From contig JAUCBJ010007945.1 of assembly GCA_032718475.1 (NCBI GenBank), forward strand, positions 119,706 through 183,705: a DNA stretch of 64,000 nt, read 5' to 3'. Under the pieces are notes generated by a model. It did not search any database, was not told where the DNA came from, and saw only the letters and a list, made by a program, of their open reading frames with translations. Of this stretch, positions 1-49,399 are shown piece after piece (position 1 is the stretch's first letter; each line of letters starts with the position of its first letter). The DNA is from Nemertoderma westbladi. Lineage: Eukaryota; Animalia; Xenacoelomorpha. The position numbers and the translations under genes were made by a program.

Positions 1-8
1 ACACCCAC

Positions 9-497: not shown

Positions 498-641
498 TGG
501 AATTAGAGAAGAGTTTAGTCGTCCAAGATTTGGACTGAGGGGGGTGGGATTGAGGGCGAGACGCCCTTCCCACGCAAGAAAAAATGGAAAATAATAATAA
601 AATAAATAAGTACATAGTAGGTACGCAGTTAGTAGGCAGAA

Positions 642-1354
642 GTTAGTTAAGAGGTACGTAGTACCTAGTTAGTTAGTTAGAGTTAGAGGGTACGTAAGTA
701 CCGCTAGTTAGTTAGAGTTAGAGGGTACGTAGTACCGCTAGTTAGTTAGAGAGTTAGAGGGTACGTAAGTACCGCTAGTTAGTTAGAGTTAGAGGGTACG
801 TAGTACCGCTAGTTAGTTAGAGAGTTAGAGGGTATGTAAGTACCGCTAGTTAGTTAGAGTTAGAGGGTACATAGTACCGCTAGTTAGTTAGAGAGTTAGA
901 GGGTACGTAAGTACCGCTAGTTAGTTAGAGTTAGAGGGTACGTAAGTACCACTAGTTAGTTAGAGTTAGAGGGTACGTAGTACCGCTAGTTAGTTAGAGA
1001 GTTAGAGGGTACGTAAGTACCGCTAGTTAGTTAGAGAGTTAGAGGGTACGTAAGTACCGCTAGTTAGTTAGAGTTAGAGGGTACGTAAGTACCGCTAGTT
1101 AGTTAGAGTTAGAGGGTACGTAGTACCGCTAGTTAGTTAGAGAGTTAGAGGGTACGTAAGTACCGTTAGTTAGTTAGAGAGTTAGAGGGTACGTAAGTAC
1201 CGCTGTTAGTTAGAGTTAGAGGGTACGTAGTACCGCTAGTTAGTTAGAGAGTTAGGGGGTACGTAGTACCGTTAGTTAGAGGAGAGTTAGAGGGTACGTA
1301 GTACCGTTAGTTAATTGGAATTAGAGTTAGAGGGTACGTAGTACCGTTAGTTAG
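642..1354 (+). repeat. Tandem repeat of ~32-35 bp (GTTAGTTAGAGTTAGAGGGTACGTA(A)GTACCGCTA), about 20 units
   Basis: Directly visible; each unit carries the hairpin GGTAC-GTA(A)-GTACC. Confidence 0.97.
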
Positions 1355-1843
1355 AAGAGAGAGAGTAAGAGGTAAAAGGGGTATATAAGATATAGATATT
1401 AGTTAGCAGTTAGTAGCGAGAGGGGGGCATGTGAGTACAGCTGGGTAAATCGTGTGGCCACACGACGCATACTGCTGTACTACATAGGCCCACAGAGTAG
1501 GCCAGAATGTGGATTAGAGAATAGAATAATCCATAGGCAGTAGTAAGTAGTAGGACAGTAGAATCAAAATTAAATAGATAAATAAATAGAATAGGGCTGA
1601 AAGTTACAAATAATGGCAACACAAGGAAAGTTATTCTAGAACATAATAAAAGTAACGGACAGAAATCGTAAATTACGCTCATTTACTAGCTTCAAAATTA
1701 ATTAGTAATAATTTAGGCTAAAAGGCGCAGTTAAGTAAGAAATAGGCCATTATCGGACCGTACAGAACATCCTAGATTCATCACTCATCTGTATTGCGCC
1801 TTGGTAAGGCACCACCTTGCAGGTGAGCGAGTGAGTGTTCGGA

Positions 1844-4390
1844 ATGGCGAGCAAGTTGATCAGAAAGAGAAAGGCGGAGTCAGGAGGAAAGGAGATACTG
1901 GTGGATTTCACCGAGAGGCATCCGGAAGAGAAGACGAGAGGATATTACGAGAGGTTGGAAAGGGGTCACGCGGCACGAGCGCTGCAGGATCACTTCCGGG
2001 AGATGAACGAACAGTGGCTGGTCGGGACCTATGGGACGCCGTCGCTGGACAACGCGATCTTCCAACACTTCCACTACGTGGTGAAAGGGGACGAGGCGAA
2101 GTTCGGGATTCCGAAGTACCCAAGGGAATCACCGAGGAAGGACTGGAAGAGATTCATAGAATCCGTCAACAGAGGAGGATATATGATCCTAGACGATGAG
2201 GGAACCGTGGAAGACGAGGCGGGTTCGAGACGAGGAACGGCGGGGTCGGCCAGGACCATACTCCTACATTTGGCCGCGCCAAATGGGGACATCTTCTTAT
2301 TCGATCTAGGAATGTATGGGAAGAAGGACGGGCCGAAATTAAACCGGTTACCGAAAGCGGTACAAGTCTTGGTAAGAGAGAAGTCGACGACGAAAGTGGG
2401 ATCGGCGATTCGCGAGGATGCGGAGAGAATCGTCGGTCCGGACGCCACCAACCTCCTGGATATGCTGAAGGTCTTTATGGCTATGACGGCACCGGATGGG
2501 TTGGGGGTAGTCGAAAACACAGGCCAATGCGGGGCGGTGGCAATGGGCCAATTATTGGGGCTCGTGTGCCACAAACCGATGGATTGGGGGAAGTTTAGGG
2601 AAGAATACGGAGCAGAACTAGCGAACTCGCTAAAGTGGGGAGCGAGACCGGGAAAGCAGGAGGTATATCAATTCCGCAGGGGAGCGATAAAGGTATATCA
2701 GAAGCGATATATCCTGCAGGAGGACTGGATGATGACAAGTTTGCTTAACTTATTCATGACCGTGGTTATCGAGAGGGAACCAGGGGCATTTCTGTTATCG
2801 GGATCACCCCTAAGCTACAGGAGAGCCTTTAAAGTGGCCTTCGACGGTCTGGTAGACCACCCGGGGCTGAAGGGCGAGTCGGTGTACTACAACAGCCGGC
2901 ATCTGGTAGACGGGGAGACAGATACACCGTATCAGAGATGGGAGCAGCTAGAAACGGATAGACGAGAAGCAAAGCGACTAGAGGAAGTCGCCAGACGGGA
3001 GAGGATAGAAGCAGAGGAGAGGGAAGAGGAGGCCAGGACACAGAGTTACGGCTTCGAGGAACAGGCAGGCCTAGACGAACTTCATTGGACTTCATCAGGG
3101 AGTTCGGGGGAGCTTCTAGGGCGAGAACTGGGATGGACGGTGGGATCACCGAAACAGTCGATGTCGGGGTTGCAAACGATGCCCATACCAGCGGGCGCCG
3201 AAGGCGACCAACCGCCAAGGAAGTTAAGGGAGTTAGAGGGATGGAGAGCTACGGGCGAGAGCCAAGGCGGGAAGGGACATAGTGGATCCATCGGGATACC
3301 GGGGTTGGAGTCACTGCCAGAGGAGGAGGACGACGACGACGAGTTTGGAGAGATGCCGCCCATCGAGAGGATAGGCCACTCGGACACGGACTGGGTTGGC
3401 GGGAGGGTGGTGACGACCAGTGGGGCGAGAGCCTTCTGGGACAAACCCGGCAAGCGGGCCTGGGTGCACAAGGAGCCGGCGATGGATTTCGCGGGGAGCA
3501 CTATCAGGTTGGGCAGGCAACCGGGGACGGCACCACGGGTAGTATTCGGGGAGACGATGCCCAAGAGGGGCGGAGAGATCGACGTAGACAGAGATGCTAA
3601 CGTGGAGAAATTCGCCTATCAGCGACTCCACAGACCGCGGAGATTGCTTGGGATGAAAGACGACGTGGGGCGGGAGACATTGGTACTCGGTTGCGGCTAC
3701 TGTGGGAGACAGACCCACCAGGAAAGGAGCTGCTTGTACCGGTTCCAGAAGGGAACCTTTTGTCTCTACTGCCGAGAGCCAAGCCACAGGATGGGGGCGT
3801 GTCCACGGTTGCATAACCGATGTCCAAAGTGCCACTTTCGGGGACACTACGGACGCGAGTGCGACTGGATGAACGACGAGGAGAAGTTCACAAGATTCGA
3901 GGAGTGGGCCGACGTCGGGGCCATGACGCGTCAGCACATGAAGGCCCAGGAGTTCAAGTGGGGTTTCTTCCTTATCAATCAGGAGACTCACATGGAAATC
4001 ATAAAGCGGAGGCTACTGTTTACCTACCAAGAGGTAGCAACGGCGGCGTCGTACGCCGGAGTGATGAACACGCAAAGATATTTGGACAGGTGGACGCCAC
4101 AGAACCGAAGGGAGTTTAGGGATTTCTTGGCGGAGCATGTACCGCAAGCAATGAAAATGATCCTATGGGACGCCACCAGAGGGAGACAACCGGGCCACTC
4201 TGAGGGGCCACCGGCGAAGCGATATCGGGCACTAATAACACCAGCGCCCAAGGAGCCAACGACCGGGATCAGCAGGGAGGTGGCGGCGAAGGTCCGAAAG
4301 CAGAAAGCGGATCCCAGAGGAACGGTGGTAACCAAGAAACGACCCAGGGAAGAGGACGCCAGGGGGAACTATCCCCAGAGGAACAGATAG
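1844..4390 (+). CDS. Accessory ORF of A1 (848 aa): DEDDy-like 3'-5' exonuclease domain, acidic linker, three CCHC zinc knuckles
   Basis: Exonuclease-like motifs: YMILDDEG, LLHLAAPNGDIFLFD, LPKAVQVLVREKSTTKVGSAIRED, LLDML, YQKRYILQED. Knuckles: CGYCGRQTHQERSC, CLYCREPSHRMGAC, CPKCHFRGHYGREC. The ORF is also intact in A2. Confidence 0.85.
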   Translation: MASKLIRKRKAESGGKEILVDFTERHPEEKTRGYYERLERGHAARALQDHFREMNEQWLVGTYGTPSLDNAIFQHFHYVVKGDEAKFGIPKYPRESPRKDWKRFIESVNRGGYMILDDEGTVEDEAGSRRGTAGSARTILLHLAAPNGDIFLFDLGMYGKKDGPKLNRLPKAVQVLVREKSTTKVGSAIREDAERIVGPDATNLLDMLKVFMAMTAPDGLGVVENTGQCGAVAMGQLLGLVCHKPMDWGKFREEYGAELANSLKWGARPGKQEVYQFRRGAIKVYQKRYILQEDWMMTSLLNLFMTVVIEREPGAFLLSGSPLSYRRAFKVAFDGLVDHPGLKGESVYYNSRHLVDGETDTPYQRWEQLETDRREAKRLEEVARRERIEAEEREEEARTQSYGFEEQAGLDELHWTSSGSSGELLGRELGWTVGSPKQSMSGLQTMPIPAGAEGDQPPRKLRELEGWRATGESQGGKGHSGSIGIPGLESLPEEEDDDDEFGEMPPIERIGHSDTDWVGGRVVTTSGARAFWDKPGKRAWVHKEPAMDFAGSTIRLGRQPGTAPRVVFGETMPKRGGEIDVDRDANVEKFAYQRLHRPRRLLGMKDDVGRETLVLGCGYCGRQTHQERSCLYRFQKGTFCLYCREPSHRMGACPRLHNRCPKCHFRGHYGRECDWMNDEEKFTRFEEWADVGAMTRQHMKAQEFKWGFFLINQETHMEIIKRRLLFTYQEVATAASYAGVMNTQRYLDRWTPQNRREFRDFLAEHVPQAMKMILWDATRGRQPGHSEGPPAKRYRALITPAPKEPTTGISREVAAKVRKQKADPRGTVVTKKRPREEDARGNYPQRNR

Positions 4391-5093
4391 GTTCCCAGAG
4401 TCGAGGGAGAGAGACTGGGACTTGGACGTGGTACGCCTGGAAGGCGCCGCGTGAGACGTACGAACTATTAAGTACAAATCTAATTAATGCAAATAATCAT
4501 ATAAGTGCAATTTGTATGTACGTACGTAGTAATTAGTAATCTACAAATATACGTTCGGAGTAAGTACTATAGTCATACAACCTTTCTCAATTAGCTACTG
4601 GGACTGGGGGATAACTGACTATGGCACTATGGACGAGACACCAGACAATTTCACACTTCTTGAGTGCGACGGCACAAGAGGGGGGGGGAGATTCGTCAGG
4701 AGGAATGAGGTAGTCAAAGTGGGGTTGAGGGACGGAGTAATAGAGCGAAGTGCAGAGAGAGTGCGGACGCAATTCTAGTGTGGGGGGGGGGGGAGAATAA
4801 GAGGCTGAGTGAGGGACGAGGAGGTCCGAGTGTATGAGAGAGTTAGGATGAGAGTGAAGAAGAGATAGGGCGGAAGTGTTGGGGAAACAAAAGTTGCGTG
4901 AGAGGTGAACGCGATCGGCCCGACATGAGACGCCAGGCACACAGGGTAGCGTTATCATACCCATAGGGAGCGGCCTGGAAAGCCGGCTCCGAGAGAAAAG
5001 AATTCCACCCCACACCCGATACTAGATCGGGATCCAGCGGGATTGTAGCGCACTTTTTTGGTTGATGCTATCTTCTTACCGGGAAGATAGCAT

Positions 5094-5102
5094 GGGGGGG
5101 AG
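5094..5102 (+). promoter_or_regulatory. Putative polypurine tract of A1
   Basis: GGGGGGGAG immediately before TGTTAG, also present in A2; other G-runs lie upstream, so the assignment is tentative. Confidence 0.5.
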
Positions 5103-5627
5103 TGTTAGCTTATTCAATCCCGCTAACACCCCATAAAGTTAAGCCGATAAGCAATATTGGGAGCCATGAGATTGGGTAATCATTCACTCGTGCCACCCCA
5201 ATAAGAATGGGAAGGAGAAGCACACAATGAGGGTCAGGGGCCAAACCCCTAACCCAGAGAGAACAGGTGGAGTGAACGGGAACACTCCAAAGGGCGCCAA
5301 CAAGGGTATCAACCAATCAGAGGGGGGAAAGGCATCAATTAGGTAGAGTAACAAGGCCAACCGTGCAATATAGCCACTTGGCAGTAATCATATCAGTTCA
5401 GTTATCTCAGTGCAATACTGGTGCTAGTTTAGGTTAGATAGTTTAGCTAGGGAAGGACCGGGACTTTAGTTACCGTATCCCGCCTTCCGTGTACAACAAT
5501 CTATATCTATATCTCTATACCGATCATTATATACAACGAACGACACGAACCCATTTACTCTTCACACACGGCGGGGACGCGTGAACTAACAACGGATAAA
5601 CCGGGATCCCTCCTGGATCCCGTCACA
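5103..5627 (+). repeat. Family A LTR (3' end firm, 5' boundary tentative)
   Basis: TG...CA ends after a PPT-like tract; homologous to 57809-58346; terminal hairpin CGGGATCC-N5-GGATCCCG. Confidence 0.65.
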
Positions 5628-6042: not shown

Positions 6043-6843
6043 ATGGACAGCAAGATGGCCACCCTTCTAGAGAAACAAAATGACTTAATAGACGCAATCA
6101 GTACCAACAACAACTACAAAAGTACAAACCATCAGGCCATGATAAACACCAAACCCCTCAAGGTTGCCAACACCGACGTCAACAACACCAAACCCAAACC
6201 AAATAACACCAGATCACCCGCAATTCACACGCATGGGAACAAAGAAAGACGAAAAAACACTAGCGAAGCAATAAAGACGATTGTAGTACTAGGCCTACCA
6301 GCAAACAGCAGCTCAGTTACCCTGTCACTATTTTGCTACAAGCAGACAGGCATACAACCTATACACGTATGGGTAAAAGGGAAAAAATTCAACCCAAAAT
6401 CGGCAATAGTAACAATAAACGCTAGTAACTATCCAATTTTCATGGACAAAAGTATGTGGCCAGGTGAGAACCCCACAACCCACGATTACATCGAACCCAT
6501 CAGCAATAGAAACAATCACTACCCTAGGTCAGAAACATCCAACAGTCATCAACACAACAATCCCCACAACAACATAAACAGTAGCAGTGACTACGATGAC
6601 AGAAGAAGAACCGACCTTCCAAGACATACCAGCAACCGCCAACAAGACCGCTACTACTACAAATCCAACAACCATGACATTCCTAGACAAGACAAGTATG
6701 TGTCCATCAATCAAACTCAACCATTACACTGGGACAACCAGACGCGAAACTACCAACGACACACTGCTAACTATAACAAGAAGACCCACTACAACAACAA
6801 AAACCACAGTCGGTATAATAACGAAAAATACCGCTGCTTTTAA
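6043..6843 (+). CDS. LINE-alpha ORF1 (possibly 5'-incomplete)
   Basis: Lies upstream of the APE ORF; RRM-like segment TIVVLGLP...SAIVTI...MWP; N/H/R-rich tail. Confidence 0.65.
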   Translation: MDSKMATLLEKQNDLIDAISTNNNYKSTNHQAMINTKPLKVANTDVNNTKPKPNNTRSPAIHTHGNKERRKNTSEAIKTIVVLGLPANSSSVTLSLFCYKQTGIQPIHVWVKGKKFNPKSAIVTINASNYPIFMDKSMWPGENPTTHDYIEPISNRNNHYPRSETSNSHQHNNPHNNINSSSDYDDRRRTDLPRHTSNRQQDRYYYKSNNHDIPRQDKYVSINQTQPLHWDNQTRNYQRHTANYNKKTHYNNKNHSRYNNEKYRCF

Positions 6844-6943
6844 ATCGACTCCTTTTATTCCAAACCGCCCAAAAACCTTAAGTGAGTACATCGACCGTCT
6901 GGATCCCGCCCGAAAATCCCATAATGGCCATGACAAACCACAA

Positions 6944-8830
6944 ATGACGACAGGAACGACAGCGCGAGAAACAAAGAATATGGACAACTTACCTGTAAAA
7001 TCACTGAAAGTAATAACCTACAACTGCCAAGGCTACAGCAGAAACCGACACTACATTAACATGCTACTAAGCACGGAACACCCCGACATATTGATACACC
7101 AGGAGCACTGGCTTGGGCATAGAGAAACAACCTTTAATTTCGGTAAAACGCAAATGAACAAAAAATACTCATGTAAACCAGGTCAATATACCATTGCCAT
7201 CGGGATGGACAACGGCAAACCACGAGTTAGAGGTGAAGGTGGTGTTGCTTTTCTCACTAGGAACGACATCGCACCTTTCTGTACGTCTTTGGAAACCAAC
7301 TCTGATCGAATTGTAGCCATGACCTTAGACAACATGTATGACAGCAACATAACAGTAGTAGGACTGTACATGCCATACAACAGCGGAGAGACATATAGCG
7401 AAATGAACTACATACAGGAATGCGGCAAACTATCATCACTACTCGACGACGCTAAGCAAAATGGAAACGAGCTCCTGGTAGCAGGCGACATCAATGGAAT
7501 CCTCCCACACCACAATCAATCAAATAAGAAATCCTTCGGCAAGTTGTTCACCGACAATATCACAGAACCGTTTCAGTTACAAACCACAAACAACGCACCA
7601 ATAACCACAGGTGGACATGCAAGCTTTTTCTTTAGATCAAAGAACAAGACCATCCTGCGAGAGTCACTGATAGACTACATCACTAACACCACGGGCATAG
7701 GAAACGGGCTTTCTACAACCCATACCTACAAACCAACCTTCGACAACATATCAGATCATACACCAATTATGTCCACGTACAAACTACCAGCATACACCGA
7801 CAACCAACATCTACCACTACCCTCTAAACTCAGCAAATGCCGTGTTTTCCTATTTAACAAGGCAACAGATGAGGAAAAGAAACAATACAAGAAGCAAATT
7901 GAACGGGCCCTTCAAAATATCAACAACGCAAACAATATAGACAATTCCACAACAACAAACCAGATGGCGGATATCATCACAAACATAATACTAACTACAG
8001 GCCGCAAAATCCCACATTCCTTCAATAGTGCCAAAAAAACTAAACAAATGGAAAAGAAGATGGAAGGACACTTCAAAACCACCACAGGAAAACACAGCAG
8101 ACGCCAACGCAAATAGAAAATCCCTACAAAGCCTTCAGCAGAGACGAAGCTGCAAAAGACTGGCCCATGAGGCATACAAGCAACACATCCTAAGCTTAGC
8201 TGAAAACTGCAAATTGTCACCCGAAAAATTCTGGAACACCTTAACAGATGAGGAACAACAGTCATCTGACATAGCCAACACAAACTCCGACAACATATAT
8301 CGCCACTATAAAGCCTTCTTCGAATCAGAGCGAAACAACAGAGAGGAAATAGACACAAACACACAACTACGCACACAAAACGCTAGTGAGCCCATCCAAA
8401 AGATCACCCCCCACCAGGTCGACGAAGCAATAAAATCTCTCAACAAACGTAAATCGGCCGACATCAACAACCTATCTGCCGAACACCTCCTACACGGCAG
8501 AACAGTACCACTACTCACCCAATTCCTTGCAGACCTATACAACATGATGCAGTTAACCAATACTTTCCCTGACAACCTATGTACAAGTTTACTAATCCCA
8601 CACCTGAAGGGAAATAACCGCAGTAAACATCACTCCGATAGCTACAGAGCGATATCTATTCTCTCCATTCTGGTGAAACTATGGGAAACAATAGTCATGC
8701 CGCAATTCACAAAAGAAAAACCAAGTGACCTCCAGATGGCGTACAAAAAGGGTATCAGTAGTGAAATGACATATTCCATGTCAAACAGGCTCATTAAACG
8801 CTTCACCAATGGCGGATCTACCATTCACAT
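6944..8830 (+). pseudogene. LINE-alpha ORF2, 5' half (AP endonuclease and RT start), frameshift near 8030-8110
   Basis: VITYNCQG, ILIHQEHW, GGVAFL, VGLYMP, VAGDIN, LIDYI, SDHTPI; then YRAISILSILVKLWE and QMAYKKG. Confidence 0.9.
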
Positions 8831-15355: not shown

Positions 15356-16886
15356 TGTTCGCGGTATTTCAACTTTTTATAAAGCGAGTTGAATATTTTT
15401 TGTATTAATTTAAAATGATTATTCCGATATTACTACTGGGTGCGGGACCATGGGTTTTGGGCACATTCTATAAACTGGGGGCGATTTATGGGCGAACTTT
15501 GGGGCGACTTACAGGGTACGGGACTAATTTCATGTTTATAAGGGCCAAGGGGGGATGGAAAATTCAAGCAGTATTCAGGTTAGCCTGATTACTATTAGGC
15601 CCTGGCCAACTTCCTGCTGCCTGTAGAGGTGGATTTGGTAACGTGCCAGGCCTAAAGGACAAGGACTGCCCTTAGCGGTCCCTGGCCAACAGCAGTTATT
15701 ACGAGCCTGAAAAGGACATCGGAACGCCAGCTGCTTGTGTCAGGGACTTGTGATGGGAAACGACACGACAGACCCCTAGCCAAGCCGTACTGGTTCTCGA
15801 TGATCGTTCCCTTCGGGGTTCGTGAGGGGTGGGACGGACACGCGAAAGGGTCTACCGACTAACAGAGGAAGGGTTTGACGAGGACTGCCCTTAGCGGTCT
15901 CTGGTCAACAGCAGTTATTACGAGCCTGAAAAGGACATCGGAACGCCGGCTGCTTGTACCAGGGATTTGCGACGGGACCGACGACAGACCCCTTAGCCAA
16001 GCCGTACTGGTTCTCGATGATCGTTCCCTTCGGGGTTCGTGAGGGGTGGGACGGACACGCGACGGGGTCGAAAGACAAAGGACTGGACTCTACCGGCCTA
16101 CCGACTGTTCGGAGCAGTTTCTCGGCTGCCGAAGCGACTACAAGCCTGAAAGGGACTCGGAAAGCCTAGGTGGTTGGGTTTCTGCGATGAACCGACGGAC
16201 CCCTAGCCAAGCCGTACTGGTTTTCGATGATCGTCCCCTTCGGGGTTCGTGAGGGGTGGGACGGACACTCGAACGGGTCCACCGACACGACAGACTCCTA
16301 GCCAAGCCGTACTGGTTCTCGATGACCGATCCCTTCGGGGTTCGAGAGGGGTGGTACGGATACGCAACAGAGTCTACCGACTGGACCGACCCTTAGCCAA
16401 GCCGTGCTGGTTCTCGATGATCGATCCCTTCGGGGTTCGGGAGGGGTGGAACGGACACGCGACAGGGTCGACCGACACCGACACTACGGCATCAAGACTA
16501 GGACCGAGGGAAAATCTGGGGAACATTAGTTAGGCTAAAATCTGAGCGAACAGTGGGTAATTAAATAATATACTGTAGGGATTTATATTGTCGTGTATAA
16601 TTATTGTGAATATTTGGTGCATAATTGATTTGGGGAAGCCCAAAATTATTCTCAATCAGGATTGTACATTGTTACAGGATTGTAACAGGGTTCAGGGTTC
16701 AGTGAGATTAACTACATTAAAGAATATATCCAACCAATGCAGCTTTTTCTCAACCGCAATCCTGCATCTAAGAAATTCCTCCTTCTCCACAATCAATATC
16801 CGGTGACTGGCCGGGACTCCGTGGTCTGTAAAGCCCCGCCTCCAGCATCGGCGTTTTTCCCCCCTGGTGTCGGGATAACGGCAACA
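15356..16886 (+). repeat. B1 5' LTR (1531 bp)
   Basis: About 99% identical by eye to 28931-30460. Confidence 0.97.
15660..16470 (+). repeat. Array of hairpin repeats in the B LTR (five UUCG-capped units and three GAAA-capped units)
   Basis: Core TAGCCAAGCCGTACTGGTTCTCGATGA...CCCTTCGGGGTTCG...GAGGGGTGG.ACGGA.AC.C repeated five times, interleaved with GAGCCTGAAA.GGAC units. Confidence 0.92.
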
Positions 16887-16888
16887 AA

Positions 16889-16901
16889 ATTGAGAATAAT
16901 T
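16889..16901 (+). promoter_or_regulatory. Non-tRNA primer-binding site of B1, complementary to LTR 16644-16656
   Basis: ATTGAGAATAATT starts 2 nt after the LTR end; its reverse complement AATTATTCTCAAT lies in the LTR; no TGG start. Confidence 0.75.
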
Positions 16902-17133
16902 CGGTCAATTTTGACAGGGTGTCAAAATTGAGAATAAAACGCGGCCAACTTCAACTGGTGGATGTTAAGAATCCTACAATACTCTTCAAAACTCTCTACG
17001 TGCTTGCCAGCACCCACTACGAGGAAACTCTGGTATTTGAGTTAAGACTAAGTCGTGGTTTAATTAATCAACAAATTCGATCTAACCAACTCGTAGTCGG
17101 CAGATCACATATTTGGAGAGTTGTTAACAGGGA

Positions 17134-17325
17134 ATGGAAGTATCGATCACACCCATTGATATAATCCAAGTTGAGCCAGGAATCTGGCACGTCGAGGTTG
17201 AAGTACAAGGAACGAACGTCGGACGATTCAGGATAACCGTTCGGGTGGTCCAAGCTGAGTACAATACCTACGAGGAACTGTTTTACGACATCGCCTATCT
17301 AGCTATCGACGAGGCGCTACAATGA
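17134..17325 (+). CDS. ORF0, 63-aa protein upstream of gag (B1)
   Basis: Identical protein in B2 with five synonymous changes; its stop overlaps the gag ATG (ATGA). Confidence 0.72.
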   Translation: MEVSITPIDIIQVEPGIWHVEVEVQGTNVGRFRITVRVVQAEYNTYEELFYDIAYLAIDEALQ

Positions 17326-20300
17326 CGACAAATAACGTATCCGATACTGATGAGATGGATCACCACACAGACTCCGAAACCGACGAGGTACCGAACATCA
17401 AGAACATGGCTCGTCGACTAGGTGCTCTCAAAGGCGGAGTCACTCGAGCGTACCAACGTATAGAGAAACAACTCAAGGGAGTCGAAACCCCCCTCAACGA
17501 GATACAAACTCAGCTTCAGAGTATCCGAAATATCTTACAAAGATATGAGAGAATGATACAGGCGTACCAAGAACTCATCCCCGCCACCGACCAGGTATAT
17601 TATCCCAAATTGGAAGAACACGTTGCACGCCTAGACGAATTCCGCAAACAACACCGGAGGACCCTTAGCCTCGTGAGAGGCTACGAAGAACAGTACTACA
17701 AGAGAGCTGAAAGAACAGACGCAGAATCGGTGCGAACCTCCAATACCAGGACCACAATTCATCGAAAGAAAGCGGGATCCTCAAGACACCAGCGCTCCAG
17801 CGCTAGGAGCGAGATATCCGGCTCAGCGCGCAGTTCTCAAGGGGGGCCGCCACTCCGAGATCAGCTACGAGAACAGAAGGCATTTGCCCTCAAAGCTCGG
17901 ATGGAAGATGAGTACGTTCAACTGCAAACTGAGCAAGACATATTAGCCGCCGAAATGCAAAAGCGGGAGGCCGAACAAGAGGTCGAACGGCGGGCCGAAC
18001 AACATAGACAGGAGGCTGAACAACGTGAACGAGAGGCCAAAAGGGAGGCTGAACATCGTGAACGAGAGGCCAAAAGGGAGGCTGAACAACGTGAACGAGA
18101 GGCCAAACAGGAAGCTGAACAACGTGAACGAGAGGCCAAACAAGAGATCGAACAACGTAAATGGGAAGCAGAAATGCGTAAACAACACGCCGAGGCCCAA
18201 GCGATTCTCATCCACAAAAAGAATGCGGATATTGCGAAACTCGCGGAATATGAAGCCGCACTTATAGAACGAGATATCCAACTATACGAGGACTGGGAAA
18301 GGGAAATAGATCAGGAATATGAACCAATCCCGGTACCGGAGTTAGAGAAGTCATTTACACCAACAGCGGCAAAACTTCCGAAACCCGAGATCCCGCCTAT
18401 CATACAGTCTACGTTATCGGCACAAGCACCGGTGTTCCATCCCCCACCGGTTACGCTGAAAAATGAGGAACCGTGTTTCCCATCCAACCCCACGACAACG
18501 AGTGTACCCAAGTACGAGCCTGAAAGGGACTCGGAACGGGACGCCACTCCCCGATCCAACAACCCATTTACATCCACACCACAAACCCGTAGTCGCGTCA
18601 TCATTAAAACTCCATCTATCATTGATCCATCGAGTATGGGAGTGAGTGCCAATAACTATCCAGAAGTCGAGGAAATCCTGCCAAGTACCTAACTGATCTA
18701 GACTTTGCTGATGACTTAGGAGTACTCTCAGAATCATTAGAGGGAGCCCAACGGCTCCTCAGCTCATTAGAACATGCTGCTTCTAGTGTTGGTCTTTTTA
18801 TTAACTCCAGAAAGACCAAAATTCTGACAGTTAACTTTGAAAGTCCTCAGCAAGTCTCTGATCGGATGAGCATAAGCTCAAAGGATGGTATGCTTGAGCA
18901 TGTGGACGACTTCTGTTACCTGGGATCATGGATCCGGAAGTCAGGTGAGGACCTTCGAATACGTAAGGGAAAGGCATGGGCATCCTTGAATAGGCTTTCC
19001 AGGATTTGGAAGTCACCGAGAATTAATCGGAAACTTAAGGTCCGATTATTTAGAGCAGCAGTAGTTCCAGTACTCCTCTACGGGAGTCCATGCTGGGCTC
19101 TAACTGCTGAGGACACCAAATCTCTGGATGGCACATTCACAAGAATGCTACGCCGGGTTCATTGTGTCAAGTACAATGCACACATCTCCAACCAGACACT
19201 ATATAACATTGGAGGTGTCTCATTGGTTCCCCCAAGCTTGACACTAGAACAAAATCGCCTCCGCTTTGCAGGACATTGCTTTCGCCGTGAGGACCAGCCA
19301 GTGCATAATCTTGTACTTTGGCAGCCTCATGGAGTGAATAAGCATGGTGGACAGCCCATGACTTTCTTGAGACGCATCTTAAAGGACACTGGCCTTAAAG
19401 ATGCGGATGATCTAGGAAATGTCATGGGTGATAGGGAGTTGTGGCGGTGCAATTTTGTTGACAAGCCGGCACAGCATTCTTAAAAATGCAGCTGCAATGC
19501 AGCATGCCGATCCTAGTAGCCAATAACTATAACCCTCCGAGTCACTCCAGTTCAGACGATGTCGGTATTATCCGGGCGTTGGAAAACCGCCTTGCCATGC
19601 CTAAGATGGAGATCCGCACCTTCGAAGGAGATCCCGTCGATTACCTCAGATTCAAGAAACGGTTCTTTGCGCAGATTGGATCAACGGACATAGCCGACGC
19701 ACAGAAATTGGTATATTTATCGCAATACCTGGGTGACAAACCACGCCGAATTATTGCGTGTTTTGAGGGAGGTTCTCATGAGGCATACTATGACGCATGG
19801 AAAACTCTAGATAAAAGATACGGAAATACCGGAACTATAATTAATAAAACTCTAGAGAGACTGATACAGGACGCGGGATCACTAGGGGACCCACAGAACA
19901 TCCAGGAATTCTCCGACTCTATGAAGGATGCCTACTATACTCTGAAACCCTTGAATAAGGAGGACCAGGTGAACAACATTCTAAACCTCCGACAGATCGC
20001 CCGGAAGTTCCCCGGATGGCTACAAAGTAAGTGGGCTTATAAATGCGTAGATCTCCGGCGCAGACATCCAGATCGAGATCCTAGCTTCCTTGAAATGTCG
20101 GCATTCCTGGACATTATCTCCGAAGCCATGAATGACTCGATGTTTTCAAAACAGAGTCTCGCCAACTTGGATGGAATAGAGAGCAACTCCAGGAGTAAGA
20201 TACCCCCTCAGAAACCGAGATTCCGCCCCCCACCGGTGAGTACGATGGCCATCACCATGGCCGAGGATTCCGACGACGAAGACTACGAGGAACCGACATC

Positions 20301-23300
20301 CGCCGAGGAATGGGCGTGTTACCTTGCGAATTGGGCACCCGAGAGGGAAGGCATCACAAACTCCCTCCTCTGTCTCTTCTGTGGAGAGAAACATAAAGTG
20401 GAATTCTGCAGGAAGTTTCAGTTCGCCGAACTCGTCCCACGCTTCGAGGCGATAATGAAACACCGAGGATGCTTCCGGTGTCTTGGAACAGGTCACTATG
20501 TTCGGGATTGCGACCAAAGATCGTGCTGTGCCGTCTGTAATGACCAACGTCATCACACGCTCCTCCACATCCCCGCGAACTTCGATTTCACTACCCTCCC
20601 CTTTCGGATCGAAGCCAAGCGAAGAGGAGAAACGAACCACGTTTTCAAAGGAACCCGGACAACCCAACGGAGAGAAACCAACCCGTTTAAAATCTCCACC
20701 GATACACCACAAGTAACAAATATTTCAGCCACGATTAATCTTATAAATCGCCGCTACAGGGTATTCGCAAAGGTAATCCCAGTAAGGATTCAAGGAGTCG
20801 GCAAATCCCTGACGACGCTCGCGTTCCTTGATAACGGGTCTGACGGAACCATCATCGACCGGGATTTCCTCGAGCAACTCGGCCTAGAATGTGAACCTTG
20901 TAAACGGCCCATACAAACCATCACCGATAACAGAGAGGTAGAGTCCGGGGAGGTGCAACTCCAGATGGAAGGAGTGATGAAGGGCTACGAAACGGTTAAG
21001 TTAACCATCAAGAACGCCTTGGTACACACAGACCTCCGAGTGCGGTTCCGACAATCGGCCGAGTATGCCCCCCTCATACAATTGGACCGAGACGATGTAG
21101 ATCTGAGGTGTCCGCAGTTGGACGTAAGCTGCATCACCCTACTGATCGGACTTGATACACCGGAACTACACATCCCCACCGGAGATATCGCCCGATCTAT
21201 AAAACAGGATGACGGATTTTATGCTGAACGAACAATAATGGGATGGACACTCTGCGGCATTAAGGAAGAAACTACTGACACCTATACCTACCTTCCCAAA
21301 TGTCAGATTAAAGAGAATGCAACCTCCGTGGGTTATTGCTCAGCTACTGACCTTGACGAGGATTTGTTTCTGGAGACCGAGAAAACCCAACAAAAGATGA
21401 CGAAATATTTTAATCTAGAGACCCAGGAGTTCGCTGAAAAGGACGAAAACCCGTCCAAAGAGGATCAATATTGTATGGACGTTCTCGACCAGGCCACGTT
21501 CAAAGACGGACACTGGTGTTCACCTATGTTATGGAAGGACCCAAACAAACCAATGGCAAACAACGCCAGCATGGCACTTAGGCGACTTAAGGGGATTCTA
21601 CGCCGGCTGAATGACCAACCCGAGATAAAGGAGAAATATAATACCGTAATCCAAGGATATCTCGACGATGGATTAGCAGAAATGGTACCACGGAATGAAC
21701 TGCAAGGTGGTAAAAGAACATATTATCTCCCAACCCACTATGTGGTAGAAGCCCGGAAGGGTGGGAAAATCCGAATGGTAAATGATGCCGCCGCTATGTA
21801 CCAGGGCGAATCCCTAAACAGTCAGCTTTACACGGGACCCAACATATATAGTACACTCATCGGCGTATTGATCAGGTTCAGGGAAAACCGGGTAGCATTC
21901 ACCTGCGACATCAAGGCCATGTTTCATCAAGTTCGTACGCTACCAAGAGACTCCGACTGTCTACATATCCTATGGACGGATAAAACACTAACTCAACAGG
22001 AGATTAGTCAACTTACGATAAAGGACGTAGACATAATGCGTATGGTCGTCAGGATCTTCGGCGCTAAGGACTCGCCGGTAGCATGCAGTGACATGCTGAA
22101 GAGGACGGCAACTATGTGCGAAAACGAGTTCCCTCCAACCGTCATAGAAACCATCCGACGATGCTTTTACGTGGACGATGGATGCGCCGGCGCAGATAAT
22201 GTGGACGAGGCATATCGGCTAGCAATGGGGATGGTAGAATGTCTAAAGAAAGGAGGTTTTCCGCTCGTGAAGTTCAGATCCCACGACAAAACACTTATGG
22301 AAAAGTTTCCGGAGGACATCCGACTGGAAAATAACAAAATGTATTCGGAGGATGTGGAACACCGTGTACTCGGGATTGAATGGGACATAGAATCAGACGA
22401 ATTCATTTTCAAATATAAACCCCTACCCAAGCCTATGACAAAAAGGGGATGTTTGTCGATAAAAAGCGCCATCTTCGACCCAATAAATTTCATATCTCCA
22501 GTAACCTTGGCCGGAATGAACCTGATTAAGGAAATGTGGATAGAAGGACTGGGATGGGACGAAGAACTCCCCCCACACCTCAGCGTCAAATGGAGAAAAT
22601 GGACGGAGCAGCTCGAACACCTACATCTTATGCGGATACCTCGACCGTTCTTCCTCGATAAACTACCCACCGATATCTTCCAGCTCCATACCTTCTCGGA
22701 TGCTTCGAATACCGGAATTGGCGTAGTCACCTTCTTACGAAGACTCAGCAATGATGGAAACGGCGATACGAGCTTCTTATTTTCTAAAGCCAAGACAGTA
22801 TCCGGGGAATTCGTAGCAACGATTCCAAGACTCGAGCTACAGGCTGCAGTTTGGGCAGTAAGACAGAATCGCATGGTCATGCGGAACCTACGAATCCCCA
22901 TCGAGTCTCAACACTTCTGGGTCGATTCGAGTATAGTTCTCTATTATCTCCACTCTCCATCACGGCGTCACACTACATTTGTTGCGAACCGAGCCACGGA
23001 GATTAAACAGTGTACCGGCCGAGAACAGTGGCACCATGTGAACGGGAAAGAAAATCCAGCGGACTTATCAAGCCGAGGTGCCACCCCAAAACAACTCGGT
23101 AAAAGTAAACTCTGGCTTACAGGCCCGGAATTCCTACAGCAACCACAATTAACATGGAGTACCCGATTCGACCCCGAACTCGATAGCGGAAAATACTCCG
23201 AGGACGATAAAGAGATCCGTAAAGTCCATAGAAGCAACGCAGTGGAAATTTATAGCTGTCTGACTGAGCCTGCAAAGGACTCGGGCAGGCACTATAACGT

Positions 23301-24873
23301 TGCGACGATCATGCAACCAGCGGCGTCTTTACATCTGTTGATCGAGCGAACCTCTTCAATGAGACGGCTCATCCACCACATTATAACCCTTCGCAACTTC
23401 CTACGGTGGAAAAACAACAAGCCGATAGTTCAACGGAGTATACAAGAACTCATTATCGCGGAGAAGTGTATCGTTGGATATGTCCAGAGAGAAAGTTTCC
23501 CCGATGAGTGGGAACAACTCAGTGCGGGCAAGACCTTGAAACCGGATAGCCCAGTCTACCAACTGAGACCAATGATGGGAGAGGACGGACTGATCCGACT
23601 GAATACCCGGATGGCAAACGCCCCGGTCGAATATGAGGTTAAATACCCGGCGCTTCTGCCCGGAACTTCAACACTAGCCAAGCTATTAATTCAACAATGT
23701 CACGAGGAGAACCATCACGCAGGACAAAACTGGATTATAGCTAATATAAGACAAAGATATTGGATCACACACATCCAGCCACTGATCCGGAAAGTGTTGA
23801 AACGTTGCTTTGTCTGCAGAAGATATCTAGCGCCACCACTCACACAAAAGATGGCCGACTTACCAGCCACCCGTCTACAAGCAGATTCCCCACCGTTCTA
23901 CATCACCGGAGTGGACTGCTTCGGACCGTTTACGGTCATCGAACGGCGATCCAACATCAAATGCTGGGGAGCCATCTTCACCTGCCTTAGGTCTAGGGCA
24001 ATCTACCTAGACATTGTGGTAAACCTGACGCAACACGCATTCATCAACGCTCTGCGTCGGTTCGTGGCGAGCAATGGGACATGTCGTCACATGTATTCCG
24101 ATAACGGCACAAACTTTGTGGGAGGAGAAAGAGAACTTAGAGAGGCGATCGAGGGATGGTTTACCGATAACACCGCATCCCAAGTCTGGAAGGAACACCA
24201 GATACAGTGGCACTTCCAGACCCCCTTAGCACCCCATACGAGCGGGGTATGGGAGAAACTGATCGACCTAGTGAAACGATCCATGCGCGTCGCTCTAGGA
24301 GACACCCGGGTAACCCATGACACCCTCCGCACAACATTCTGCGAGATCACGGCTACCCTGAACAACCGACCCATTGTCCCTATCCGCGACGACCCCACAG
24401 ACCTGGAGCCCCTTACTCCTAATCACCTACTGGGGAGACCTAAAACTCATGTTCTCCCGGAGACAATGTTTCCGGATCCCAACGATATTACGAGACATAC
24501 AAACTGGAAGAAGGCCCAAGCGTTGGCAGCGCATTGGTGGAGAATCTGGGCCCAGGAGTACCTCATAACCCTCCGGACCAGGAGGAAGTGGAACAACACC
24601 TACAGGAATGTCGAAGTTGGCGACATGGTACTAGTAAAAGAAGACCTTAAAGACCGCGTCCACTGGCCTGTGGCGCGAGTCGTGGCAATACAACCGAGTA
24701 AAGACGGACTTGCGAGGACTGTGACGATACGAACGGCAAAGGGCCACTACCAACGCCCTATCCAGAGGCTGTGCCTTCTCGAAGGCAATGACAGCGGTGA
24801 CTCTACGAGAGGTGATAAGTTCCCTACTCAAGATCCTGCTGCAGACATTGGTGACAATTACAAATGCGTATAA
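17322..24873 (+). pseudogene. gag-pol: B1 gag-pol polyprotein, interrupted by the RTE insertion at 18660-19518
   Basis: Coiled-coil N-terminus; TFEGDPVDYLRF; CLFC/CFRC/CAVC knuckles; PR FLDNGS; RT FYVDD; RNase H FSDAS; IN GVDCFGP...YSDNGTNF...WEKLI. Confidence 0.95.
18660..19518 (+). mobile_element. 5'-truncated RTE-like LINE inserted in B1 gag
   Basis: 12-bp TSD GCCAATAACTAT (18648-18659 and 19519-19530); absent from B2; DFADDL, FCYLGS, KVRLFRAAVVPVLLYG; (TAG)n tail. Confidence 0.95.
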
Positions 24874-25168
24874 ACCCTTCTCATCCTGTTGACAAACTCT
24901 TTTAAACTGTGATTTATCGACATTGAAAATGGACCCCCCTTAAACCAACTGTAACCACGCAAATGGTATTTGTGTTTCCTCGTGTGTTATGTGGAGTCCA
25001 GCGTCACCCTGCAGATGTTTCGGCTGACGCAGGGTCGTTTATGTATTGTTTACCCTGATTTTGGTCATCGGGACCAACGCCATTGGATTATTGGAGATGG
25101 TAAAGATTTGAAGTGGAATTCATTGTATTCATCGCAGTATGTTATGTTGTCCGTTGCGTGCGCAGTTC

Positions 25169-25568
25169 GGGGCGTAGGCGGTGTAACTAGTCCAGCTGTA
25201 GATCCCGGATTGCCGCGCAACACCCCCTCTATCCCGTTATTCTGGTGGGTCCATGGTGCATCCACATGACTTCGACGATAGAGGGTTTTATGTTTCTCAG
25301 TCGCGTTATTCTGGTGGGACCATTGCGTGGATTTTGGGGCGTAGGCGGTGTAACTAGTCCAGCTGTAGATCCCAGAATGTTGCGTAACCCCATCCCACAT
25401 GACTTCGTCGACTGAGCTTTATGTTGTTGGAAGTGTTATTCTGGTGGGTCCCTGGTGCATCCACGTGACTTCACTCCCAGCGTCTTCATTGTCCGTTACG
25501 TGAGCAGTTTGGGGCGTAGGCGGTGTAACTAGCCCAGCTGTAGATCCCAGATTGCCGCGTAACACCCC
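25169..25568 (+). repeat. Three interleaved repeats between B1 pol and the accessory ORF
   Basis: GGGGCGTAGGCGGTGTAACTAG.CCAGCTGTAGATCCC x3 and GTTATTCTGGTGGG x3. Confidence 0.9.
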
Positions 25569-26160
25569 TTCCACAACAAAGATTTCCCAAAGAAGATGAT
25601 TGAATGTAGTTGGAAATGATGAAAAGGATCAGACAACTCTACTATAAACCGAATGGTGACGCGTATGATGATGAAAATGTAATGATGCGCACCCTGGTGC
25701 TGCGCTTATAACAAATGATGATAGCCGGGGGCTATAACCCCAATGATGATGTGGAAATAAACAAAATTGAGAATAAATGGTGGAACTAAATGATGTGGAA
25801 ATGTGGAAATAAATGAAATGTGAAATAAACGGTGGAAATAAATGTGTTGAAATATGTTGAAATAAATGAAATGAGATGAAATAATAAAGAGAAATGAAAA
25901 AAGACAAAAAAAAGGTATAAAAAAGTCTGAAGAAAAGAATTGGAAAAAAGAAATGACATAAAAAGTCAAAAAAACTGGTTGGATATTAATGTATAGTTAT
26001 AGTAACTGTAAATGCTGAATGTATTAGCAATAAGATGATAGATGCCTATATAGCAATGTTATTTAATAAACTGAACTGAATTATTCTGCAATCACTATAG
26101 TTTCAGACTTTCTGGACTTATAATTAACTGATCTAATTTGTAACGAATATAATCGTAAAT

Positions 26161-28756
26161 ATGGACCCAAATCGCCAAATTATCGGCGAATTACGTAACA
26201 CGATAGATCTACTGGAATATTCGCAACCCGGATCCCCTGACTTTGATACAAATTGGAGCACCCTGCTAAATGAGAACGTGCGAGTCGTTAAATTCACCGG
26301 GCGAGAGGGACCGGATTCCAAGAATCTACGAGCCCTCCGGTTAGCCGATGCTAGTACGAGACTGAAAAGAACTCGGAACGCAAAGGCAACCGTAGGGGAC
26401 GATTCGTCGTTTTGGGAAACGTTCCGGCAGAGCGTCTACAGATCCCGATGTTTGATCTACGACAACGAGGGAAACGCGACGCCCACCTCGAAAGCGATTA
26501 CGTTGGTGAGATGTCAAAGTTTCGTCGACGACAAGAGTACGTACCTCGCCCACTGGGGAAACCTGTCGGAGTGTACGGCGACGCTTCGAGAGGAACGTAT
26601 ATCGACCATCCAGAATCGACTACCAGGAAAAGTACGGGGCGAAAGAATACGGTCGATCCTTGGTCGTCGTCCTCGGAACCCTGGACGGTTTGGTATTGGT
26701 GTGTCGAATATTTCCGACACCCAGACAGGAAGTGCAGGCAGCCGGAGCGATCTGGTTGCTACCTCCGGAAATCCAAAAGATCCTCTTCGACTTCGACGTC
26801 ATTAAAATTGGGTCGGATATAAAGGCGGACGTCCGGAACGACTACGCGAACGCTCCTTCAGGAAGAAACCGACGAGACGACCTCAATGCCCTTAGCCATT
26901 GCGTCGACACTCAAACGCTACTAGCCTGGTTACGATTCGCCGAGTTCATGCGAGGATTCCAAGAGGTGAGACCGACGAAATCCGGGATCGGCTACCTTGC
27001 TGTGCTAAACGGCGGCATCGACTTCAAACCCCAGAAATTCCGGGACTATAATAAAATATATGGTGGATACCCGGGATTAGAAATAAAGAGCGAGCGAGAG
27101 GGTCGATGGAAGGACGTTGATCGGAAGTGGACGATACACCAAAGGTGGGAGAATCCCGATCGACGGAACTACGTCTATGTCGTTATGGAGTGCTACACCG
27201 TCGCTAAGTTTATCTGTAAAACTCTCGATAACCTTATTACGGCGGTTCCTCTTTCCTTCGTCGACTACGACTGGAACGAGGTTATAAACCACGCATTCAA
27301 AGCGGTCGAGAACATCACACCGGGAGAGACTAAAACACTCGCTGTTATCGATTCCTGGGACGAGAGCGGACCTTACGACATCCCTACGATTACCGAACTT
27401 CTCGGTGCGGAGGAGCCTCTGATTTCTTCGGAAGGGGAAGAAATATGGCTAAATGGGGGTGTTATACTCTCCACCCCGAAGCGACAACTCGAGCCGGAGG
27501 CCGCTTACCAACCGGCCGCCAAACGGGTTGCCTCCTCCGAACCAACGACGGAAGCGGGCGTTTCCTCACCACTCGGCTTCGGTAGCCCTGCGAGGGAGTT
27601 GGTTACTACCTTCGCGTTAAATGACTTCGGTGATACGTGCCAAAGGTTATCCCCATATCCTTTCCCGGGTGGCGAAGACTGGTCGTCGGAGATTCCGAGT
27701 ACCAGCAATCAACGGACCCGCTCAGCGATATTGGTCGAGAAGGGCCCCAGCGCTGCGCCGACTCATGACGATCTCCTCGGAATCCCTCCGTCGAAAACCC
27801 CGGCACCTCTTCTCCGACCAGCGGTGGCTACTACACCCTCCGTTCCTCAGGATCCTATGTGACTAACCCGTTGGTACGCCGAGCAAACCGAATGGATCCA
27901 CCGCCAGAAACGGTCGTCCGAGTTGAGACCGACGGGACACAAAGAAGGTTATCGTAGCGAGGACCTACTATGCAAAAGCCCAGCCTTCCGCGGGCTACCG
28001 ACCACCGCGAATATTCAGAAGAGCGACCGACGACTCGAGTATCACGTCGGCGTCCCGATTCCGATATTCCCCAGTCTAGAGATGCAGTTGGAGGTGTGCG
28101 GCGACTGTGGTTCGGAGCAGTGCCCACACGGTAGAAGGAATCGGGTTACCGATTCATGCCTCCAGCTCCTCGGGATACTCTATTGCCCATACTGCGCGAC
28201 ATCGGGCCACGACGTTTCCGTCTGTCCGATCCTATATAACCTCTGCACCACGTGCGGTTTCCGTGGACATTCCTCTAGCCCCCGCTGCTATATCAAATGT
28301 CCTACCAAAGACGTTACCGCTATGGGAAATATGGTCATGTTTGAAACATATGCAAACAGCCACATAAAGACCAAGGTTCGGAGAAACGCTCGGAATATCG
28401 CGCAGGAGATGGCGTGCGGGTACTTCTCCTTCCCGGAACGCCTCCACACGTCGGCCACGCTGCCTTTCCATTACGTGGATTTGTTGCTGAGCGCTGGATT
28501 ATTCGGCCCATTCGAAGTCATTAGACGCTTATACTCGTATAAAGAGGAGTTCGGTGACGGAGAGTGGTTCCTCGAGGCTCGCAACTCCGAGTTGGAACGA
28601 CGAACCGATATGATCCCAATGCCATCGAAAGGAAGAGCCGCCAGGAGACAAGCCGAAGCGTTGCTCACGATGGATGTTGACGCTCCTCTACCAGCTATAG
28701 CGATCGACGAGAGCCGATGGGCGAAGAGGCGAAAGGCGTATCAGAGAAAGAAATAG
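26161..28756 (+). pseudogene. B1 accessory ORF: DEDDy-like exonuclease and CCHC knuckles (5-nt deletion near 26616, stop at 27860-27862)
   Basis: LIYDNEG, LLPPEIQKILFDFDVIKIGSDIKAD, CVDTQ, SGIGYLA, YVYVVMEC; CPYCATSGHDVSVC and CTTCGFRGHSSSPRC. The B1/B2 consensus gives one ORF of about 866 aa. Confidence 0.85.
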
Positions 28757-28921
28757 TGGATCGGGATATTCCAGGAACATTTATCGAACATTTATTTTTA
28801 TACATATATATATAAACTCTAGGCCAAATTAATTAAAACTATGCAATATTAAATTTGGGTTTTTTATATTGGGAATGACCTACGCAAACTCAATCTACCG
28901 ATAGACCTCACGAAGGTCATT

Positions 28922-28930
28922 GGGGGGGAC
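28922..28930 (+). promoter_or_regulatory. B1 polypurine tract
   Basis: GGGGGGGAC immediately before the 3' LTR. Confidence 0.85.
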
Positions 28931-30460
28931 TGTTCGCGGTATTTCAACTTTTTATAACGCGAGTTGAATATTTTTTGTATTAATTTAAAATGATTATTCC
29001 GATATTACTACTGGGTGCGGGACCATGGGTTTTGGGCACATTCTATAAACTGGGGGCGATTTATGGGCGAACTTTGGGGCGACTTACAGGGTACGGGACT
29101 AATTTCATGTTTATAAGGGCCAAGGGGGGATGGAAAATTCAAGCAGTATTCAGGTTAGCCTGATTACTATTAGGCCCTGGCCAACTTCCTGCTGCCTGTA
29201 GAGGTGGATTTGGTAACGCTCCAGGCCTAAAGGACAAGGACTGCCCTTAGCGGTCCCTGGCCAACAGCAGTTATTACGAGCCTGAAAAGGACATCGGAAC
29301 GCCAGCTGCTTGTGTCAGGGACTTGCGACGGGAAACGACACGACAGACCCCTAGCCAAGCCGTACTGGTTCTCGATGATCGTTCCCTTCGGGGTTCGTGA
29401 GGGGTGGGACGGACACGCGAAAGGGTCTACCGACTAACAGAGGAAGGGTTTGACGAGGACTGCCCTTAGGGGTCTCTGGTCAACAGCAGTTATTACGAGC
29501 CTGAAAAGGACATCGGAACGCCGGCTGCTTGTACCAGGGATTTGCGACGGGACCGACGACAGACCCCTTAGCCAAGCCGTACTGGTTCTCGATGATCGTT
29601 CCCTTCGGGGTTCGTGAGGGGTGGGACGGACACGCGACGGGGTCGAAAGACAAAGGACTGGACTCTACCGGCCTACCGACTGTTCGGAGCAGTTTCTCGG
29701 CTGCCGAAGTGACTACGAGCCTGAAAGGGACTCGGAAAGCCTAGGTGGTTGGGTTTCTGCGATGAACCGACGGACCCCTAGCCAAGCCGTACTGGTTCTC
29801 GATGATCGTCCCCTTCGGGGTTCGTGAGGGGTGGGACGGACACGCGAACGGGTCCACCGACACGACAGACTCCTAGCCAAGCCGTACTGGTTCTCGATGA
29901 CCGATCCCTTCGGGGTTCGAGAGGGGTGGTACGGATACGCGACAGAGTCTACCGACTGGACCAACCCTTAGCCAAGCCGTGCTGGTTCTCGATGATCGAT
30001 CCCTTCGGGGTTCGGGAGGGGTGGAACGGACACGCGACAGGGTCGACCGACACCGACACTACGGCATCAAGACTAGGACCGAGGGAAAATCTGGGGAACA
30101 TTAGTTAGGCTAAAATCTGAGCGAACAGTGGGTAATTAAATAATATACTGTAGGGATTTATATTGTCGTGTATAATTATTGTGAATATTTGGTGTATATT
30201 GATTTGGGGAAGCCCAAAATTATTCTCAATCAGGATTGTACATTGTTACAGGATTGTAACAGGATTCAGGGTTCAGTGAGATTAACTACATTAAAGAATA
30301 TATCCAACCAATGCAGCTTTTTCTCAACCGCAATCCTGCATCTAAGAAATTCCTCCTTCTCCACAATCAATATCCGGTGACTGGCCGGGACTCCGTGGTC
30401 TGTAAAGCCCCGCCTCCAGCATCGGCGTTTTTCCCCCCTGGTGTCGGGATAACGGCAACA
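28931..30460 (+). repeat. B1 3' LTR (1530 bp)
   Basis: Direct repeat of 15356-16886. Confidence 0.97.
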
Positions 30461-36671: not shown

Positions 36672-36673
36672 AA

Positions 36674-36686
36674 ATTAAGAATAATT
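36674..36686 (+). promoter_or_regulatory. Non-tRNA primer-binding site of B2, complementary to LTR 36437-36449
   Basis: ATTAAGAATAATT versus AATTATTCTTAAT; compensatory change relative to B1. Confidence 0.75.
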
Positions 36687-49394: not shown

Positions 49395-49399
49395 GTGGA

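Follow-up and report, generated by a model that had tools for sequence, protein, structure and literature searches.

Probable priming of reverse transcription by the element's own RNA in two BEL/Pao retroelements of Nemertoderma westbladi

Two young retroelements, B and B2, lie in a 64,000-nt stretch of Nemertoderma westbladi DNA (the window), and they raise the question of what primes their reverse transcription. For the Belpaoviridae (Semotivirus), the ICTV description gives an 18-nt site for tRNA-Arg or tRNA-Gly, and replication that is tRNA-primed and poorly understood (PMC8742986). In both B and B2, TGG is absent within 5 nt of the LTR end, and ARAGORN detected no tRNA in the 64-kb window. 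Instead, the site that follows the 5' LTR is perfectly complementary to a segment of the LTR some 240 nt further upstream (Table 1). Comparison of the two elements with each other and with distant relatives makes it probable that this 13-nt LTR segment of the element's own RNA primes minus-strand DNA synthesis in place of a tRNA.

Table 1. Coordinates of elements B and B2 and of their candidate priming features in the window
Feature	Position	Strand	Remarks
Element B	15356-30460	+	BEL/Pao, 15.1 kb
5' LTR of B	15356-16886	+	1531 nt, TG...CA ends; 5' part with tandem GC-rich repeats
Context motif	16632-16643	+	directly 5' of candidate primer; G-rich, then CCCAA
Candidate self-primer of B	16644-16656	+	13 nt, complementary to 16889-16901
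ATTAAA, candidate poly(A) signal	16716-16721	+	3' of primer in B
Primer-binding site 1 of B	16889-16901	+	non-tRNA type; 2 nt past LTR end
Hairpin of B	16905-16931	+	12 bp, 3-nt loop; C-G in B, T-A in B2
Second primer-binding site of B	16927-16937	+	11 of 13 nt match
gag-pol of B	17259-24873	+	DUF1759, Asp protease, Peptidase_A17, integrase Zn finger, DUF5641
Polypurine tract (G7) of B	28922-28928	+	followed by 2-nt spacer before 3' LTR
3' LTR of B	28931-30460	+	99.0% identical to 5' LTR
Primer segment, second copy in 3' LTR of B	30218-30230	+	position computed from LTR alignment
Element B2	35063-49394	+	BEL/Pao, 14.3 kb
5' LTR of B2	35063-36671	+	1609 nt; insertion into another BEL/Pao element
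Candidate self-primer of B2	36437-36449	+	complementary to 36674-36686
Primer-binding site 1 of B2	36674-36686	+	2 nt past 5' LTR end
Hairpin of B2	36694-36720	+	12 bp
Second primer-binding site of B2	36716-36728	+	perfect, 13 nt match
gag-pol of B2	37078-43779	+	two frames in register; stop codon 38062-38064 between
3' LTR of B2	47786-49394	+	99.6% identical to 5' LTR

The window is eukaryotic repeat DNA in which retroelements are nested in one another. The polyproteins of B and B2 carry Pao-type domains in order (DUF1759, Asp_protease_2, Peptidase_A17 with E 5e-38, Integrase_H2C2 and DUF5641), and both elements are therefore classed as BEL/Pao by pol, as the initial annotation had proposed. 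PF05380 is present in all of the 120 homologues listed. RVT_1 gave no scoring match in the two polyproteins, and a YVDD motif is present in the sequence. The other hallmarks of the superfamily are likewise found, namely TG...CA LTRs, a polypurine tract and a target duplication, here of 5 bp (TGTAA around B, GTGGA around B2). The LTR pair of B differs at 15 of 1531 columns (99.0% identical) and that of B2 at 7 of 1609 (99.6%). The 2-nt spacer between the polypurine tract and the 3' LTR mirrors the 2-nt spacer between the 5' LTR and the primer site.

Several further structures accompany these elements. The gag-pol of B is broken, in gag, by a non-LTR retrotransposon fragment (about 18660-19518) that is 98.7% identical to a second copy at 58623-59408. 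B2 is nested in a BEL/Pao element, A (33572-35062 and 49395-58346), the 3' half of which is found again at the window start (1-5627); the 3' LTR of A apparently occupies about 57809-58346 and its 5' LTR lies outside the window. The U3 of B (15658-16483) and the other three LTRs contain 5-6 copies of a GC-rich repeat of roughly 95-100 nt, one unit of which folds no better than shuffles. Rfam returned no match on the LTR at E up to 1 and none at gathering score on the whole window. Between pol and an extra ORF stand three copies of an 83-nt repeat (25147-25571 in B, 44053-44477 in B2); two copies folded into long stems (z -3.3 and -4.2), and Rfam gave one weak match on the 3' repeats, none of note.

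The extra ORF region 3' of pol spans 26137-28756 in B and 45005-47620 in B2 and is spread over several frames in both, while element A holds a single 853-aa frame in the same place (54536-57097) with a weak pairwise match to B/B2. Pfam and homologue searches gave the extra ORF no match of note, and the A frame, compared with the PDB, matched zinc knuckles only, weakly. The first part of the B2 region resembles 3'-5' exonuclease (DNA_pol_A_exo1) clusters, a lead only (language-model feature score 0.92, family on 11-31% of members), and Cys/His knuckles lie further along. DEDDy ORF3s are described for bdelloid LTR elements in sections of PMC5408684 that do not mention BEL.

The candidate priming site itself withstood scrutiny. 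Its coordinates and letters had been given exactly in the initial annotation, as had the lack of a TGG tRNA site after the 5' LTR of B, the perfect reverse complementarity of site and LTR segment, and the joint alteration of both in B2. The 13-nt match, beginning at 16644 in B and 36437 in B2, is the longest reverse-complement match between the first 40 post-LTR bases and the whole LTR. When the whole B LTR was dinucleotide-shuffled 3000 times, one shuffle reached that length; with only its last 350 nt shuffled, likewise 3000 times, no match was longer than 11 nt. The flanks beyond the 3' LTRs of B and B2 contain no LTR match of at least 8 nt. A single pair differs between the elements and the change is compensatory, C16653:G16892 in B corresponding to T36446:A36677 in B2. 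The 3' end of the candidate primer faces the LTR end, the polarity that priming needs. The complementary site and its LTR segment are thereby confirmed as a real feature. The segment is directly followed by CAG and then by more acceptor-like AG sites (16657-16710 and 36450-36490), in the stretch that diverges most between B and B2 and that varies by 7-nt units in contigs.

The same arrangement recurs among relatives. An alignment of 43 polyproteins served as the query; of the 595 metagenome stretches confirmed in the part of the collection covered, 80 were taken up, together with 17 loci from genome contigs, and their identity to B2 is only about 27-39%. The main count was confined to 13 loci in which two copies fix the LTR end. 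All 11 non-TGG loci, which represent about 8-9 families rather than 11 independent cases, match their own LTR over 10-12 nt at an offset of 0-4, four of them contiguously and seven only across a predicted GTRAG...YAG intron. Neither of the two TGG loci is self-matching (4 and 5 nt), and among control offsets 1 of 650 reached 10 nt. The strict donor rule was fixed after a count under a looser rule, which gave similar lengths.

A flanking repeat was present at 22 loci, of which nine were excluded from the count: seven with a 3' copy cut before the LTR end (L006, L013, L016, L031, L036, L067 and L086) and two with ends that disagree (L057 and L097, of the families of L060 and L021, respectively). 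L060 was retained though its 3' copy ends at the contig end. LTR ends taken from inverted termini alone proved unreliable and were dropped. An exploratory scan of 63 loci yielded more contiguous and spliced cases, with the LTR end picked by the pairing itself, which is circular; it also yielded clear false matches, and about half of the loci had no match, often since the contig lacks the LTR part. Scans with single-protein loci (viral and metagenome) found nothing, and the alignment scan of viral contigs gave no confirmed relative.

Individual loci add detail. In L075 an intron acceptor is present in one LTR piece where the other has the joined primer (pieces 1-326 and 6700-7103), an apparent intron loss within a family; the pair supports a real intron, on the comparison of two pieces that are only 88% alike in a contig that may mix subfamilies. 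At L062 (113-135) the site pairs over 16 nt, reaching 5 nt into the context motif described below, which suggests an RNA reaching further 5' than the usual 11-nt primer. The match of L016 is 14 nt long, at an LTR end that is not fixed. Seventeen BEL/Pao loci (L081-L097) occur in records titled bacterial genomes or MAGs; the likeliest explanation is that host-animal DNA was included in the assemblies. In most of the self-type relatives, pol and the 3' LTR are separated by no more than a few hundred bases.

The bases 5' of the 11-nt primer were compared in 24 relatives (10 with fixed ends, 14 exploratory), and these bases had played no part in picking the matches. The context is conserved, with A at -2 in 21 of 24, C at -3 in 14 (a pyrimidine in 18) and G at -9 in 14. 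B shares all three, having A, C and G at these positions, and is nearly identical here to L083. The motif could represent an initiator of the TATA-less kind, placed two bases ahead of the primer, or it could mark a boundary for cutting or for plus-strand copying. A transcription start exactly at 16644 (the initial annotation predicted one at about this position) is unsupported: TATA-like motifs are missing from the 45 nt that precede the primer in all 24 relatives, such motifs being found in 9 of 25 at 50-241 nt upstream, and the first primer base of the relatives shows no purine bias. The TATA-like stretch that had been placed just upstream of the LTR site is weak: TATAAT and TATATT lie 48 and 60 nt upstream of 16644 rather than at the usual 25-35. 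A poly(A) hexamer is present in seven of nine full LTRs, always downstream of the primer, an arrangement that would leave an overlap for strand transfer; in B, another ATTAAA precedes the primer, at 16560.

A duplicated primer site behind a hairpin, with a base change at four positions together, is new here and was absent from the initial annotation. The second site starts 38 nt after site 1 in B and 42 nt in B2, and the right arm of the hairpin overlaps its 5' part, so that the B/B2 change falls in the LTR segment, site 1, the hairpin arm and site 2. When B was folded from 16642 the primer paired with site 1 (probability 0.93-0.96). Folds of B2 that include the duplication favoured site 2 (0.68-0.80) over site 1 (0.08-0.14), and with a fold begun at 36437 the primer paired with neither. 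The primer duplex is weak (-12.1 and -9.8 kcal/mol). A conserved three-duplex structure of the Tf1 type was not found in the folds of B and B2; the best flanking duplexes, scored without a control run, are 7-11 nt with G-U pairs and are differently placed in the two elements.

Contigs of other samples document variation around the site. The unit number varies: some copies lack the duplication, units number one, two or more, and one joint goes back 39 nt. Immediately 3' of the site the sequence is unstable, with seven different short letter runs. The B2 type is commoner than the B type in these contigs, with B-type letters as minority changes at 36446, 36695 and 36719; the minor change expected at 36677, the site 1 partner, is not among the changes listed. 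An LTR variant with C at the primer 5' end appears as loose ends in runs X1, X2, X3 and X5 (four runs from three samples), and in one run, X1, there is a variant of the site in which the pairing position is G, at a depth of 52.7. The two variants are matched but unlinked, lying on separate contigs. Run X6, presumed to be RNA, yielded three contig pieces, in which no start site is visible.

In light of these observations, the following pathway is proposed. The R region of the RNA would fold onto the site after the 5' LTR, and a nuclease, probably the RNase H of the element by analogy with Tf1, would cut where the duplex ends on its 3' side, freeing a 3'-OH from which the element RNA primes strong-stop DNA. 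Perhaps the primer lies within R instead of at the very start of the RNA. The stretch from the cut to the poly(A) site would provide the overlap needed in the first strand transfer. During plus-strand synthesis the primer would be copied, such that the site is rewritten from the LTR in each cycle, a step that would explain both covariation without two separate mutations and the ragged bases 3' of the site. In many relatives the primer would form only after splicing of an LTR intron, B being an intron-less form; a spliced R copy would act as primer and an unspliced copy as template, which would account for intron retention. A fuller version of the model may hold, although the chances are somewhat against it: a large and so far unrecognised BEL/Pao clade of animals would prime with an internal 10-13 nt piece of R, with a conserved upstream motif and, in many families, a spliced LTR intron, and in the intron-less B and B2 the duplicated site and co-varying hairpin would form a switch between priming and decoy.

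How the primer reaches the site admits of a variant within the broad claim. Element RNA could be supplied as primer by the 3' copy of R or by another transcript, be it a second or a shorter one, and be trimmed to the duplex, a task for which the exonuclease-like extra ORF of B is a possible candidate. This would differ from Tf1, whose primer is the RNA 5' end. The segment does occur in both LTRs, the spliced relatives retain the intron, such that primer and template would be differently spliced R copies, and the resemblance to DNA_pol_A_exo1 noted above offers a candidate trimming activity. The variant accounts for a minor share of the probability given to self-priming, as most self-type relatives have no room for an extra ORF between pol and the 3' LTR, and cis priming from the 5' copy explains intron retention without extra assumptions. 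A different reading, which is unlikely, is that the pairing has been selected for another job, for instance in a leader structure that serves packaging, dimer formation or translation or that suppresses the 5' poly(A) signal, while another molecule primes. Long-range leader pairings are common in retroviral RNAs, and the duplicated site and hairpin fold two ways, like a switch. Against such a role, in 11 of 11 loci the paired segment starts within 0-5 nt of the LTR end, measures 10-13 nt and has the polarity for priming; moreover, the segment replaces the TGG site rather than standing beside it, and no other primer site is evident there.

Priming by a host tRNA fragment or a mitochondrial tRNA, with the LTR match incidental or a by-product, would suit the AT-rich site, and half-tRNA priming is described for copia lineages in the pertinent part of PMC6317226. 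It is nevertheless very improbable, because the differing site of each relative matches its own LTR, often across an intron, and a fixed host RNA would not track such differences; the chance of the B match alone is about 1 in 3000. Least credible is a match that arose by chance or by a one-off template-switch duplication without function. The instability of the region 3' of the site, with its varying units, might be taken to point that way, but the compensation between B and B2 and the recurrence in distant families against a background of 1 in 650 speak against it, and the 13-locus comparison largely refutes it.

Self-priming by element RNA remains the preferred reading, and its origin can be considered in two quick trees (76 and 24 rows). 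The self-type loci form one clade (SH-aLRT 96 and 97, respectively), and the TGG-type loci fall outside it in a supported clade of their own (SH-aLRT 99 in the 24-row tree). B belongs to neither group and has a long branch, of about 2 changes per column, and its nearest neighbour in one tree, L026, is a contig without an LTR end. Constraining B2 to group with the self-type loci gives a tree that is not rejected (p-AU 0.114), which is no proof of grouping. The shared context motif favours common descent of B and its self-type relatives. Of the initial proposal that self-priming arose independently here, separation from Tf1 is plausible, as the two pol genes are of different superfamilies; an origin in this very lineage is not clearly supported, given that the trait marks a large BEL/Pao clade, and given the shared context and the p-AU value. 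The proposal's core, a primer drawn from the element's own RNA and not from a tRNA, has strong comparative support (11/11 non-TGG loci, 0/2 TGG loci, 1/650 controls), and it is in the details of start site and of origin here that it falls short.

Comparison with known systems places B and B2 apart from each. The Tf1 primer is 11 nt long and is freed by an RNase H cut; one Tf1 study reportedly describes primer retention. Self-priming is established in Tf1 and has been extended to the Tf1/sushi and Tcn1 groups, and in the relevant parts of bioRxiv 2022.12.06.519325 and PMC4600332 the elements Tf1/Tf2, Tj1, Tosmo and the Tf1/sushi and Tcn1 chromoviruses (Ty3/gypsy) are described as having no tRNA site and a short LTR segment complementary to the post-LTR site. 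B and B2 resemble them in both respects and differ in having pol of the BEL/Pao superfamily and no chromodomain match, so that by the criterion of Ty3/gypsy chromovirus pol they are not members of the Tf1/sushi group. Whereas the Tf1 primer is the RNA 5' end held in a three-duplex 'pretzel', in B and B2 no conserved pretzel was found and the promoter motifs do not point to 16644. Further differences from Tf1 are the second copy of the site, lying behind a hairpin, and, in relatives, a primer predicted to form across an intron. Self-priming is also predicted for the copia TAR lineage (Houba, Osr-1), in the portion of PMC6317226 devoted to it, from at least 10 bp of complementarity starting 0-5 bp after the 5' LTR. 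TAR is a plant Ty1/copia lineage separate from B and B2, which follow the same complementarity rule with 13 nt at offset 2.

Like the Belpaoviridae of the ICTV, B and B2 have LTRs, a gag-pol of Pao-type domains and a polypurine tract (PMC8742986). They differ in their self-complementary site and in size, with LTRs of 1.5-1.6 kb and elements of 14-15 kb against LTRs of 0.2-1.2 kb and genomes of 4.2-10 kb (PMC8742986). A site complementary to a tRNA 3' end, which is a trait of the known members, is lacking in B and B2, and their placement rests on pol. No report of self-priming in BEL/Pao elements was found in the literature covered; subscription papers, Repbase reports and supplements lay outside that scope, so a prior remark is possible. 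Term look-up found no discussion of priming in three BEL/Pao papers (PMC554778, PMC3118150 and PMC6238403), and the parts consulted of PMC6934838, PMC5443660 and PMC3601003 report no BEL/Pao self-priming.

Most likely, then, self-priming is a wider BEL/Pao trait that works in a Tf1-like manner without membership of the Tf1 group. If this is true, self-priming would occur in a third LTR superfamily, across many elements of marine animals, and would explain why no tRNA site can be found in these BEL/Pao elements. The replication of the intron-bearing families would be tied to host splicing. The 10-13 nt rule would provide exact predictions of primers and cut sites in dozens of families, and would aid in fixing LTR ends during annotation.
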